A stretch of DNA of 38,184 nucleotides. Source: a virus (lineage: Duplodnaviria; Heunggongvirae; Uroviricota; Caudoviricetes). Under the pieces are notes generated by a model. It did not search any database and was not told the origin of the DNA. It worked only from the letters and a program-made list of their open reading frames with translations. A program made the translations under genes and the position numbers. Each line of letters opens with the position of its first letter. Position 1 is the stretch's first letter. Shown piece by piece: positions 6,642 to 10,211 of the stretch. The DNA lies in the IMG/VR virus record IMGVR_UViG_2531839529_000007; one strand, 5' to 3'.

Positions 6642-6671
6642 TGAAGTGGTCAACAAAAACTGGCCACCGAG

Positions 6672-7129
6672 TTAGAGTTTTTTCCAGTATCGATTTTCCG
6701 ATTCGTTTGGTGGTAACCCACCATTATATTCGTGCGGTCTTAGTGCGCTGTAATATCCAACGATATAGTCCGTTATTGCGTGAGCTGCATCGCTGAAGCT
6801 TACATAGCCCGTCGCCGGCACCCATTCGTTCTTCAGACTCCTGAAGAAGCGCTCCATTGGGCTGTTATCCCAGCAGTTTCCACGCCGACTCATACTCTGC
6901 CTGATCCGGTATCTCCACAGTAACTGCCGGAACTGCCTGCTCGTATAATGACTGCCTTGATCGCTGTGGAACATCACCCCGACGGGCTTACCACGGGTTT
7001 CCCATGCCATTTCCAGTGCTTTCATGGTAAGCCTGCTGTCCGGCGAGAACGACATGGCCCAGCCCACTGGTTTTCTTGCGAACAGGTCGAGAACAACGGC
7101 GAGGTACGCCCAGCGCTTACCCGTCCAGA
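6672..7129 (-). CDS. IS911 transposase OrfB, exon 2 (C-terminal part)
   Basis: Minus strand reads ATCTGGACGGGTAAGCGCTGG... encoding [29 protein letters not shown]..., which continues the N-terminal part ending ...CGDVTY. Confidence 0.8.
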
Positions 7130-7180
7130 GTAGAGTAAGAGGCAGGGCGTAGTCGGACTATTTCCCTGCCTCTCCTCCCC

Positions 7181-7214
7181 GAACCGGACGTGCACCTTTC
7201 AGCGCATCCGGCTC
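7181..7214 (-). ncRNA. Group II intron domain V (catalytic hairpin)
   Basis: Minus strand GAGCCGGATGCGCTGAAAGGTGCACGTCCGGTTC: 34-nt hairpin with AGC triad region, bulge and GAAA tetraloop, followed by a domain VI-like hairpin and the 3' splice site. Confidence 0.8.
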
Positions 7215-7219
7215 TCCAT

Positions 7220-8743
7220 TTAAATGCTGGCGAACGCCATTGCCACTTCTGTAAAGCGCGATGTATACGTGTTTCTGGTCTCCGTCCTCAGATAGGGATT
7301 ACCTTCGGGTAGCCGCCAGCGGAACAGCTTCTTGCCTTGCCCCACCAACCGGTACAGTATTTCGCCGCTGAGCTTGCCGTGATTGGTTTTACCAAATAAA
7401 ACCCACGTTTTGCTCTGACCCGGTTTCGGTGATTTACACCACCACCTCATCAGGGAAGCGATACCTGTACGGTATTTGCGGGCCAGCCAGTGAGCCAGCT
7501 TCCAGAACACGACACGGTCGATATAACTGAAGACTTTGGCCTTAAAATCAACGAACTGATAGAACATGGCCCAGCCTTTCAGTTTTCGGTTGAGTTGTTC
7601 AGCCATATCGACTTTGCTTTCACTGTAGTTGCCTGATAACAGTGCTGTCAGCGATGCGGCGAAGTTTCTGGCTTTCTCCTGCGGGATCGTTGAGACCACT
7701 CGCATCTCGCCATAACGACTGCGTTTGCGAATGATCCTGTGCCCCAGAAAGATAAAGCCGTCATTAACATGGGTGATTTTAGTCTTATCCATGTTCAGCC
7801 TGAGTTTCAGACTGCCTTCGAGCACACCCCGACACTCCTCCCTGATGGCTTCCGCCTGTGCTTTGGTGCCTTTGACGATGAGGACAAAATCATCGGCATA
7901 GCGGCAGTACGCCACCGCGGGTTTCCACTGCCAGTTTTCTCTGACCGCCGTACTTCGGCCCCGTTGGATACTGTTATTCCAGTACCACCGATCTTTTCTG
8001 GCTTTCCCGCTCAGGTAGCGCTCATGCAGGTATTGATCGAACTCATTCAGCATGATGTTCGATAATAGCGGCGATATAACACCGCCCTGTGGCACACCTT
8101 CACTGGCCGCCCGAAAGAGACCGACATCGATATGTCCCGCCTTGATGGTTTTCCACAGCAGAGTCATGAAACGTGCGTCACTGATCCTGCGGCGTACAGC
8201 CTTCATCAGCAGTCGATGATGTACGGTGTCGAAGTAACTGGACAGGTCGCCTTCAATCACCCAGCGTCCCCGGGTTTCACCACAGTCTGTGAGCTGTAAT
8301 TTCACCGTGCGGATAGCGTGGTGGACACTGCGCTCAGGCCGGAAGCCATATGAGAGCGTATGAAAATCACTCTCCCATATCGGCTCCATCGCCATCAGCA
8401 TGGCCCGCTGAACAATACGATCCCGCAACGCGGGGATACCCAGTGGTCGCAGTTTGCCGTTGCTTTTAGGGATGTAAACCCGTCTGGCGGGCAAGGGCTG
8501 GTAGTGGCCTGAGAGTAATTCATCCCTGAGGATTTGCAGCTCAACAGCTAGTCTGGCCTGTAGCATTGTTTTGTTCACGCCATCAACGCCGGGGGTATGG
8601 GCCCCCTTTGATGAAAGCGTGATCCGCGCCGCTTCAGCCAGCCATTCTGGTTGTGTTATCAGACGCAGCAGCCGTTGAATCCGTAGGGACGGATCGGTGA
8701 CTGCCCATGTGGCAAGCTTGCGTTGCATTTCGCTGATTATCAA
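7220..8743 (-). CDS. Group II intron-encoded reverse transcriptase/maturase
   Basis: 507 aa with RT motifs (GVPQGGVISPLLSNIMLNEFD; YADDFVLIV) and a C-terminal maturase-like region; no obvious HNH endonuclease domain. Confidence 0.9.
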   Translation of the reverse strand: MIISEMQRKLATWAVTDPSLRIQRLLRLITQPEWLAEAARITLSSKGAHTPGVDGVNKTMLQARLAVELQILRDELLSGHYQPLPARRVYIPKSNGKLRPLGIPALRDRIVQRAMLMAMEPIWESDFHTLSYGFRPERSVHHAIRTVKLQLTDCGETRGRWVIEGDLSSYFDTVHHRLLMKAVRRRISDARFMTLLWKTIKAGHIDVGLFRAASEGVPQGGVISPLLSNIMLNEFDQYLHERYLSGKARKDRWYWNNSIQRGRSTAVRENWQWKPAVAYCRYADDFVLIVKGTKAQAEAIREECRGVLEGSLKLRLNMDKTKITHVNDGFIFLGHRIIRKRSRYGEMRVVSTIPQEKARNFAASLTALLSGNYSESKVDMAEQLNRKLKGWAMFYQFVDFKAKVFSYIDRVVFWKLAHWLARKYRTGIASLMRWWCKSPKPGQSKTWVLFGKTNHGKLSGEILYRLVGQGKKLFRWRLPEGNPYLRTETRNTYTSRFTEVAMAFASI

Positions 8744-9399
8744 AGGTCTTCACCTCGTTAGGTCAGTTAATTCACGTCGCAAACACATTCAAACTGCTTC
8801 CCTTCGCCATGTAATGGGCTTTCCCCATCGCGGACTACTACGGAAGCTCCGCCAGCCAGCGCGTCATCGGAGCCATGCCCCCTTAACATCCGTCGCTGAC
8901 CTTCCCCGGTTTACCTGCCTGGACTCAGGCATACTGAGGAGGCTGCCCGTCGCACTCTTTATCCTTGCTTGCCGCAAGTTGGCAGAAGTCAGCAACGCAA
9001 GCGTGATAGACGCTGCTGCCCCGGTGTTTCGCATACATGTCAAAACACCTTCGACCGGCAGTGCTTACGTATCACTGCCAGTTCCTCCTGCACGGCCTGT
9101 CAGATCACGTAGGCCGTGGTGACGTTTTCAACCCACAGAGGCGGATTAACGGGTTCATGTTCTTCAGCCTTTCAGTACTTAACCTTGAGGATCATCTCGG
9201 CTTAGTGATCTCGCCTCAATCCCCGTTGTCAGCGGGTTACATCACCCTGCGGGCATGCCGCAGGTCACTGCCGCTCAGGTTCTCCACCGTCACACCCGGT
9301 GGGATTGTTGGGTTTCTCATCGTGAGTTACCGGTTCAATATTCCAGACAGACTCGCGGTTCATTTAAGCATCCATGTCCGCCCTGAACTCCGGGCACAC

Positions 9400-9838
9400 T
9401 ATAGGTCACATCACCGCACCACACCTGATTTGGCTCGGTCACGGCGAACTGCCGTTCAAGGTAGTTAGGGATAGCAACATGTTCATGACCACCACGTTTA
9501 TACCGGTAAGTCGGCTGCTGACAGCTGACCAGCCCCAGCTCTTTCATGAGTCTGCCAGCAAGCCAGCGCCCCATCTGGTAGCCTCTCTGGGTTGCCATTG
9601 TGGCGATGCTTCTTGCTCCGGCAGAGCCGTGGCTGATGCCATGCAGTTCAAGTACCTGGCTGCGTAATACAGCCCGTCTGCCGTCTGGCTTTTCAGGACG
9701 GTTTTTCCAGTATTTGTAGCTGCTGCGATGGACCCCGAACACATGGCAGAGAGTGGCCACAGGATAACGCGCCCTGAGTTTCCCGATTATCGAGAACTGT
9801 TCAGGGAGTCTGACATCAAGAGCGCGGTAGCCTTTTTT
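9400..9838 (-). CDS. IS911 transposase OrfB, exon 1 (N-terminal part, reached by -1 frameshift from orfA)
   Basis: Encodes ...[10 protein letters not shown] up to the intron 5' splice site at 9400/9399; begins at the A-AAA-AAG slippery motif (plus 9832-9838). Confidence 0.75.
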
Positions 9839-10089
9839 AATATTTCATTTTCCATTTCAATACGTTGTAGCTTTTTCCTGAGCTCACGGATTTCAATTTG
9901 TTCCGGGGTAATGGGGGAGGCTTTTGGTGTTTTTCCCTGCCGCTCATCACGTAATTGTTTCACCCATCGCGTCATTGTGGAAAGGCCGACATCCATAGCG
10001 CTGGCTGCATCTGCCACGGTGTAATTCTGGTCAACGACCAGTTGAGCGGATTCGCGTTTAAACTCTGCGCTGAAATTTCTTTTTTTCAT
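9787..10089 (-). CDS. IS911 OrfA (HTH transposase subunit)
   Basis: 100 aa from [21 protein letters not shown]..., matching IS911 OrfA as I recall it; the track ORF carries a 12-aa upstream extension. Confidence 0.85.
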
Positions 10090-10211
10090 TATGGCACCTG
10101 TGTTGTTCTGAGGTGAGCATATCACCTCTGTTCAGGTGGCCAAATTCAGTAAACCACAACAGTTTCCTCAATTTGCACCTGCTGTATCAGCGAGGTGAGA
10201 GATAACTACAA

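Follow-up and report, generated by a model that had tools for sequence, protein, structure and literature searches.

The 38,184 nucleotides of caudoviricete DNA considered here (virus record IMGVR_UViG_2531839529_000007, the whole of which is called the window) carry on the minus strand an insertion sequence (IS) of the IS3 family, whose transposase gene orfB is interrupted by a group II intron. From its sequence we are highly confident that this is an intact copy of the intron E.c.I4, lying in sense orientation at its normal homing site within an IS911-type element, the ISEc52 isoform. E.c.I4 is known to have specific insertion positions within transposase genes, those of IS629, IS911, ISEc16, and ISEc31 (Leclercq and Cordaux, PMC3522654), and according to the same source such insertions have been reported since 2002. 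The feature is already known, being a named intron in a named target that RefSeq annotation labels routinely.

The composite element and its exon junctions

The composite of IS and intron consists of the following parts, all on the minus strand.

6642..10161: whole composite, IS3-family element (ISEc52 / IS911 type) plus intron, 3520 bp
10120..10161: IS left end (left inverted repeat, IRL) region with the variant tip TGTTGTGGTTTACTGAATTTGGCCACC, read directly
9787..10089: orfA, 100 aa, HTH_Tnp_1 (Pfam HTH_Tnp_1, E = 6.8e-14)
9832..9838: slippery heptamer A AAA AAG, -1 programmed frameshift leading to OrfAB, read in frame
9400..9838: orfB 5' exon, between frameshift site and junction, ending GAT GTG ACC TAT A
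7130..9399: group II intron E.c.I4, 2270 nt, 5' GUGUG ... 3' CUAC, 4 mismatches against E.c.I4-2b
7220..8728: intron-encoded protein (IEP; ltrA), 502 aa, YADD at 277-280, Pfam RVT_1 and GIIM
7181..7214: domain V (GAGCCGGAUGCGCUGAAAGGUGCACGUCCGGUUC) with AGC triad, Rfam RF00029, 64.9 bits
7130..7180: domain VI and 3' end, from fold and sequence, with a bulged A at 7136
6672..7129: orfB 3' exon, beginning TCTGGACGGG, its stop codon ending at 6672; Pfam rve, rve_3, and rve_2 on the fragment
6642..6683: right inverted repeat, ...GGTGGCCAGTTTTTGTTGACCACTTCA, read directly

Both exon junctions can be read directly on the minus strand. The 5' exon, ...GTGACCTATA, ends at 9400 and GTGTG follows from 9399 (in a longer read, orfB runs as ...CAGGTGTGGTGCGGTGATGTGACCTATA to 9400 and the sequence switches from 9399 to GTGTGCCCGGAG), and at the other end the intron, ...CTCTTACTCTAC, ends at 7130 and is followed by the first bases of the 3' exon (longer read, TCTGGACGGGTAAGCGCTGG). 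The intervening piece is exactly 2270 nt, all coordinates having been re-read by script, and the joined exons give ...WCGDVTYIWTGKRW... in an unbroken orfB frame, relative to which the intron lies in sense orientation. What remains after its removal is a 1250-bp IS3-family element (10161..6642), whose right end ...GACCACTTCA is located at 6642. The end of the 5' exon, GAT GTG ACC TAT A, encodes D-V-T-Y and supplies the first base of an Ile codon, GDVTYI starting at residue 226 of OrfAB. With the intron removed, OrfAB is 382 aa long and its rve domain is complete, matching the profile at positions 2-102 of 102 with 109 bits; on the separate exon fragments the Pfam matches to rve are only partial. 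RefSeq marks a 'programmed frameshift' on the intron-less IS911 copy. An earlier note on this DNA, drawn from the letters alone, had placed a group II intron within an IS911-type orfB inside a prophage; this core reading is supported, and the junctions, the length of 2270 nt, and the restored orfB frame that it gave all proved exact.

The composite is 100% identical across all 3520 bp to NZ_CP035833.1. The collection searched comprised 5,426 complete E. coli genomes, and the composite was counted in a genome if one place covers at least 80% of its 3520 bp; it was found in this way in 780 of them, the annotated loci being 99.9-100% identical. At the matching loci the RefSeq annotation reads 'ltrA: group II intron reverse transcriptase/maturase' between 'IS3-like element ISEc52 family transposase' fragments, and the match to annotated loci in hundreds of genomes puts the observation far beyond chance.

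Some of these matches deserve mention for their location. Among the matches listed, several (e.g. H8, H9, H13, H17, and H21-H27) share a position of about 0.84-0.87 Mb in their records, as would be expected of a single inherited locus and not of independent events. At L001 (NZ_CP015074.2 1523255-1529770, match H7), the one that was inspected, the composite is inserted in IS30 beside the sat toxin gene.

The intron RNA and its protein

Identity as E.c.I4 was measured against the published copy E.c.I4-2b of strain E24377A (NC_009801 4848623-4850893), taken from Table S3 of PMC3522654, which lists the coordinates of E.c.I4 copies; the two agree at 2266 of 2270 positions (99.82%). Copies in IAI39 and 55989 differ from the window intron at 6-7 positions, and at seven other loci the intron is likewise 2270 nt long and differs at 1-7. 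The termini, GUGUG at 9399..9395 and ...CUAC ending at 7130, agree with the consensus GUGYG / AY. The Rfam model RF00029 (Intron_gpII, domains V+VI; gathering score 40) matches 7216..7130 on the minus strand with 64.9 bits and E = 1e-10, and this model and one tRNA account for all Rfam matches in the window; the Rfam models of domains I-IV gave no match even at E <= 10. The canonical domain V claimed in the earlier note is borne out by the Rfam score, and the fold gives in addition a bulged A in domain VI at 7136, which lies at a distance of 7 nt from the 3' splice site and presumably serves as branch point.

E.c.I4 has been assigned to ORF class A, among the classes without an endonuclease domain (Toro and Martinez-Abarca, PMC3552965). 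Comparison with catalogued bacterial introns, which the earlier note had proposed, identifies the window intron by sequence as E.c.I4, of bacterial class A and without an endonuclease domain.

The open reading frame (ORF) at 8743..7220 is placed between about nt 656 of the upstream RNA and domain V, and shows RVT_1 (E = 1.5e-34) and GIIM (E = 1.3e-10) domains in Pfam with an intact YADD. A Pfam scan of the 502-aa IEP revealed no domain beyond these two and no endonuclease domain, and all 502 residues are identical to WP_001189123.1 as annotated in L001. The reverse transcriptase/maturase with intact YADD had been recognised correctly from the letters; the length of 507 aa given for it counts from an upstream TTG, and RefSeq annotation of identical copies uses the ATG at 8728, which yields 502 aa.

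The host IS

Plasmid p504838_108 (locus L092) carries an uninterrupted, intron-less copy that is flanked by the 3-bp target-site duplication TAG and agrees with the joined exons at 100% identity. Intron-less copies are 99.9-100% identical to the joined exons and are called ISEc52 in RefSeq, the use of this name for the host IS following RefSeq product names only. Against IS911 of BL21(DE3) (NC_012971.2 4417382-4418629) the joined exons show 94.0% nucleotide identity over the full 1250 bp. The flanks do match IS911 on alignment, and IS911, a name that the K-12 annotation applies to similar fragments, is a loose but not a wrong name, acceptable as a family label for the host; ISEc52 appears to be the more exact one.

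It is very improbable that the flanking element is unrelated to IS911 and the continuity of its exons accidental. Such a reading could appeal to the NCBI name, ISEc52 and not IS911, and to the differing IRL tip, but it has to contend with the 94.0% identity to the BL21(DE3) element over the full 1250 bp, with an equal length, the same arrangement of orfA and orfB, a shared frameshift heptamer, and a homing site of identical sequence, and with joined exons that are 100% identical to an uninterrupted copy and encode a complete rve domain.

The termini of the IS are TG...CA, the left tip TGTT lying at 10158-10161. Most ISEc52/IS911 copies have TGAA at this tip, among them L001 and the BL21 IS911. 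The TGTT tip is also present in L002 (duplication GTG) and in L092 (duplication TAG), and since it occurs at other loci with 3-bp duplications, the variant appears able to transpose.

Target site and exon-binding sequences

At eight loci the intron occupies the same codon position, in three different types of 5' exon (the slash marks the insertion point).

ISEc52/IS911 type, including the near-identical E24377A variant: GGTGATGTGACCTATA/TCTGG
Third IS3-type element, in IAI39: GGAGATATTACGTATA/TCTGG
IS629 type: GCTGATTTTACTTACG/TCAGC

The target site of the IS911 type is GATGTGACCTATA/TCTGG, that of the IS629 type GATTTTACTTACG/T, and a further site reads GATATTACGTATA/T. All three 5'-exon types encode W-x-x-D-x-T-Y, the motif with the first Asp of the DDE triad. 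Relatives of the IEP were collected from one genome per bacterial species, giving 311 matches, of which 80 loci from many phyla with IEPs 66-100% identical were kept. Where the 5' junction of these loci is readable (about 60 of the 80), it is almost always ...TGG NNN NNN GAY NTN ACN TAY N/GTGYG; the first base of the 3' exon is T in 65 of 67 related loci, and the joined exons from diverse related loci are rve transposases.

Exon-binding sequences (EBS) in the intron and their partners in the exon, the intron-binding sequences (IBS), were assigned as follows, all on the minus strand.

9408..9412: IBS2 (GAUGU, exon -13..-9), pairing with intron nt 275-279
9400..9405: IBS1 (CCUAUA, exon -6..-1), pairing 5/6 with intron nt 363-368
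9121..9125: EBS2 (ACGUC, intron nt 275-279), small hairpin loop closed by nt 266-268 / 280-282, from covariation
9032..9037: EBS1 (UGUAUG, intron nt 363-368), conserved hairpin loop, stem about nt 351-357 with 372-378, from covariation
9064..9072: further hairpin loop resembling EBS1 (AUACGUAAG, intron nt 328-336), its stem backed by compensatory changes

In a column-by-column scan, every domain I alignment column was set against every exon position in 62 sequences, and no domain I column is a better partner for exon -1 and -2 than intron nt 363 and 364, with a permutation p < 2e-4 for EBS1 and none of 500 shuffles reaching the observed values. The stem of the EBS1 hairpin shows many compensatory changes. 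Of 58 combinations, 45 have exon -10 paired with intron nt 276, where shuffling yields 33.1, and the pairs are of five types (A-U 32, G-C 8, U-G 3, C-G 1, U-A 1). The final EBS/IBS model was scored on a 57-row alignment of exon and binding segments, that is, 57 related intron/exon combinations. For EBS1 and EBS2 together (exon -1..-6 and -9..-13) 88.7% of cells are paired as compared to 83.1% when shuffled, double changes occur in 9 of the 11 pairs, and 0/500 shuffles reach any of the five measures; sliding the partners by 1-3 columns as a control gives 19-56% pairing. In an RNAalifold consensus fold of 45 sequences, EBS2 lies in the loop of a small hairpin with a covarying closing pair (CG:27, UA:15, UG:3).

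In the window, EBS2 pairs at all five positions with GAUGU, which is the Asp codon plus two bases. The complementarity runs on to exon -16, an extension that is uncertain, as the consensus fold has nt 280-282 in the stem of the hairpin. EBS1 pairs at five of six positions with CCUAUA, a stretch that extends over the Thr and Tyr codons into the base beyond them; opposite G364 stands the wobble base of the Tyr codon, which is C or U, and opposite U363 the first base of the following codon (A or G). Exon -2 and -1 are thus read by transition-tolerant pairs, which would be a simple explanation of how the intron can invade several IS3-family elements that have only the protein motif in common.

Two EBS1 candidates chosen by eye, UGUGGGU (nt 263) and the loop CGUAAG (nt 331), looked right for single sites, and the column scan favours nt 363-368. 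A separate observation concerns intron nt 154-165 (GGUGAUGUAACC, window 9235-9246, minus strand), which match the IS911-type 5' exon GGUGAUGUGACC at 11 of 12 positions and pair with the EBS2 strand in a single-sequence fold. As a 'pseudo-exon' partner of the EBS2 strand the segment was rejected, because RNAalifold (45 sequences) pairs it elsewhere with covariation (AU:25, GC:20), and its resemblance to the 5' exon looks like coincidence.

A second EBS1-like loop

The loop at nt 328-336 shares the motif RAYANGUADG with the EBS1 loop. Set against the last six exon bases it gives 75.7% paired cells and a covariation score of 0.239 against 0.158, a result reached by none of 500 shuffles in which relatedness is ignored, and when the better of the two loops is taken, at least five of six pairs form in 55 of the 57 combinations against 43.0 expected (again from a shuffle test ignoring relatedness). 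In E.c.I4 the second loop and the IS629 site are perfectly complementary by Watson-Crick pairing, and within the first 680 nt no intramolecular partner better than the exon was found for it. One may imagine two alternative EBS1 loops that differ in sequence (nt 328-336 and nt 358-370), either of which could pair with the last six exon bases and so widen the target range; on the present alignments we hold this to be unlikely. If true, the two loops would widen the set of synonymous or near-synonymous target variants that one intron can invade. As the shuffle tests ignore relatedness, the covariation of the second loop is a lead and not a result.

Class A relatives

In papers up to 2020 class A has been described as three near-identical sequences, or its 'paucity' noted (PMC3552965, PMC4244168, PMC7306698). 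The 311 relatives of the E.c.I4 protein are distributed across Proteobacteria, Nitrospirales, Bacteroidota-type metagenome-assembled genomes, and others. Judged by sequence, a class A lineage that extends across many phyla, with all of its members on the first-Asp motif W-x-x-D-x-T-Y of IS3-type transposases, is well supported, and the relatives, nearly all of which occupy one conserved codon position where their junction is readable, suggest that the class is much larger than three members and uniformly specialised. Relatives that are 66-70% identical may belong to class A and are best called putative members.

Prophage context and the history of this copy

Several observations weigh against the reading of this element as a fully normal E.c.I4 copy in IS911. 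With 94.0%, the host IS falls below 95% identity to the copy named IS911. In the IS911-type site the EBS1-IBS1 helix has a mismatch at exon -5 (C opposite U), the Thr wobble base. The second loop also covaries with the exon, and on these alignments the EBS1 assignment is not unique; furthermore, the shuffle controls (n=500) ignore the relatedness of the sequences. Lastly, the IS in the window is without a target-site duplication (flanks AAC and GAG), and sister IS copies carry 3-bp duplications (GGT; GTG in L002; TAG in L092), from which it follows that the window copy did not arrive by simple transposition. This last point leads to the surroundings of the composite.

1-1254: proA, at the window start
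1369-1441, plus: tRNA-Thr (anticodon CGU), Rfam match
1459-2622, minus: tyrosine integrase, directly adjoining tRNA-Thr, downstream of proA
10212-10538: lambda-family holin, following the IS
17105-18310: HK97-type major capsid protein
32448-33002, plus: serine recombinase of DNA-invertase type, among tail genes

The prophage occupies the proA/tRNA-Thr (proA/thrW) site, which we take to be the CP4-6 attachment site in K-12. In other lambdoid prophages, repressor, cro-like, and replication genes come after the right flank of the composite, and Q and nin-region genes come before its left flank; in the window the composite joins the early-left region directly to the holin and lysis genes. Because the flanks are normally separated by repressor, replication, nin, and Q genes that are absent here, the composite marks a deletion or recombination junction, and by its gene content the prophage is a defective one without immunity, replication, and Q regions, with the composite at the deletion junction. 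An 'empty site' joined from the two flanks (6600-6641 and 10162-10211) was found in 0 of the 5,426 complete E. coli genomes at a coverage of at least 80%, and neither IS/prophage junction is present in these genomes at the same threshold, indicating that the window locus is strain-specific. The earlier picture of a retroelement in a transposon in a prophage thus holds as far as the nesting is concerned; it does not hold as a simple insertion into an intact prophage, given the missing duplication and the deletion junction.

These observations bear on whether the intron homed into this IS at this place. The intron-bearing IS, or a recombinant between two IS copies, may have arrived already loaded, by transposition or by a homologous recombination that deleted the middle of the prophage, with no homing at this locus, and we consider this a strong contender that falls just short of an even chance. 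It would account for the flanks AAC and GAG in place of duplications such as the GGT, GTG, and TAG of the sister copies, and for two flanks that are never adjacent in the 5,426 genomes and normally belong to the early-left and the lysis regions, respectively. Composites with identical exons are also found at unrelated loci with target-site duplications (L001 inside IS30, and L002). If the locus is syntenic with the proA-thrW region of the K-12 map, the intron sense strand would be the leading-strand template, an orientation that is less favoured for endonuclease-less introns. Against arrival in the loaded state, an identical intron-less copy of the same IS variant exists, so that empty targets for homing in place are available in nature. 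The order of deletion and intron entry leaves no trace in the window, which contains one IS copy only.

Exons of mixed origin were seen at two loci, L006 (NC_011750 1583500-1588000) and L008 (NC_011748 3364900-3369400), where an IS629-type 5' exon is combined with a different IS3-type 3' exon. By their sequences these chimeric hosts are consistent with recombination between intron-bearing IS copies, which has already been noted (PMC3522654), and chimeric IS629/IS911-type exons, as a sign of recombination across composites, add to the case for a loaded arrival.

Among the remaining genes, the serine recombinase at 32448-33002 may be a tail-fibre inversion switch, and the lysozyme, Rz (beside the holin), and terminase genes are putative, being named by analogy with the matching region of L090. 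NCBIfam gave no match for the window ORFs 10542-11018 and 13294-15027. A small ORF starting at 6413 (plus strand, 6413-6641; MTFDEKELDNAINK...) is cut off by the right end of the IS, the listed 127-aa form running on into the IS, and it too has no NCBIfam match.

Splicing, mobility, and meaning

By its sequence, the IS makes OrfA and, via the -1 frameshift at A AAA AAG, the OrfAB transposase. Since the intron lies within the codons of G-D-V-T-Y-I, where the DDE triad has its first Asp, no active transposase can come from the unspliced RNA, and excision of exactly 2270 nt restores the OrfAB of 382 aa with its full rve domain. Following group II chemistry, the intron RNA is predicted to fold as a ribozyme and to leave as a lariat with the help of its own reverse transcriptase/maturase, and the spliced RNA would then permit OrfAB synthesis. 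The lariat-protein particle would locate its targets by base pairing, retrohoming being reverse splicing into DNA that matches EBS1 and EBS2. As the protein has no endonuclease domain, priming of the cDNA would have to use host DNA ends, for example those at replication forks, as in other endonuclease-less introns.

An alternative is that the present copy is inert, neither splicing nor moving, and that the IS is a dead transposon with a 2.3-kb insertion. We regard this as unlikely. Many Escherichia and Shigella genomes keep free homing sites beside their E.c.I4 copies, and some of the ORFs are disrupted (PMC3522654), which together with the location at a deletion junction in a degraded prophage and the mismatch in the EBS1 pairing would suit an inactive element. 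In the window copy, however, the full-length ORF is the same allele as in L001, L002, and L003, and none of the 5' GUGUG, domain V, the bulged A of domain VI, and the 3' AC is disrupted; differences of only 1-7 in 2270 nt from the seven other loci fit recent activity of the lineage.

The window itself matters little, as it presents a catalogued retroelement in a catalogued target, which standard pipelines already annotate as ltrA with an 'IS3 family transposase' fragment on each side. As an illustration of nested mobile elements, an intron in an IS in a prophage, it is of textbook clarity. Of wider use is a covariation-backed model of target recognition for a poorly described intron class, in which exon-binding bases that tolerate changes at two of the degenerate target positions suggest why such an intron can spread among IS elements sharing only a protein motif. 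The class would moreover be much larger than reported in PMC3552965, PMC4244168, and PMC7306698.

Comparison with known systems

The closest known systems are E.c.I4 itself and its Shigella twin S.f.I1, with which the window intron shares the length of 2270 nt, 99.8% nucleotide identity, an identical IEP, the lack of an endonuclease domain, and the point of insertion into IS3-family transposase genes, that of IS911 among them (PMC3522654, PMC3552965). From published E.c.I4 the window copy differs by four substitutions and in nothing of substance; its locus, with the two junctions, is what was not found in the 5,426 complete E. coli genomes.

The host IS resembles IS911 of BL21(DE3) (1248 bp) in its length of about 1250 bp, its orfA of 100 aa, the production of OrfAB by a -1 frameshift at A AAA AAG, the rve DDE domain, an identical intron homing site, and the 3-bp duplications seen in its sister copies, and differs from it in the IRL, which begins TGTTGTGGTTTACTG... 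in the window and TGAAGTGGCACACTG... in IS911. ISEc52 is the NCBI name carried by intron-less copies near-identical to the joined exons. A further point of comparison is RmInt1 of Sinorhizobium meliloti, an endonuclease-less bacterial intron whose natural target likewise lies inside an insertion sequence; it belongs to another ORF class (class D) and uses another IS family and site. RmInt1 has been cited as having spread together with its IS target sites (PMC3522654).

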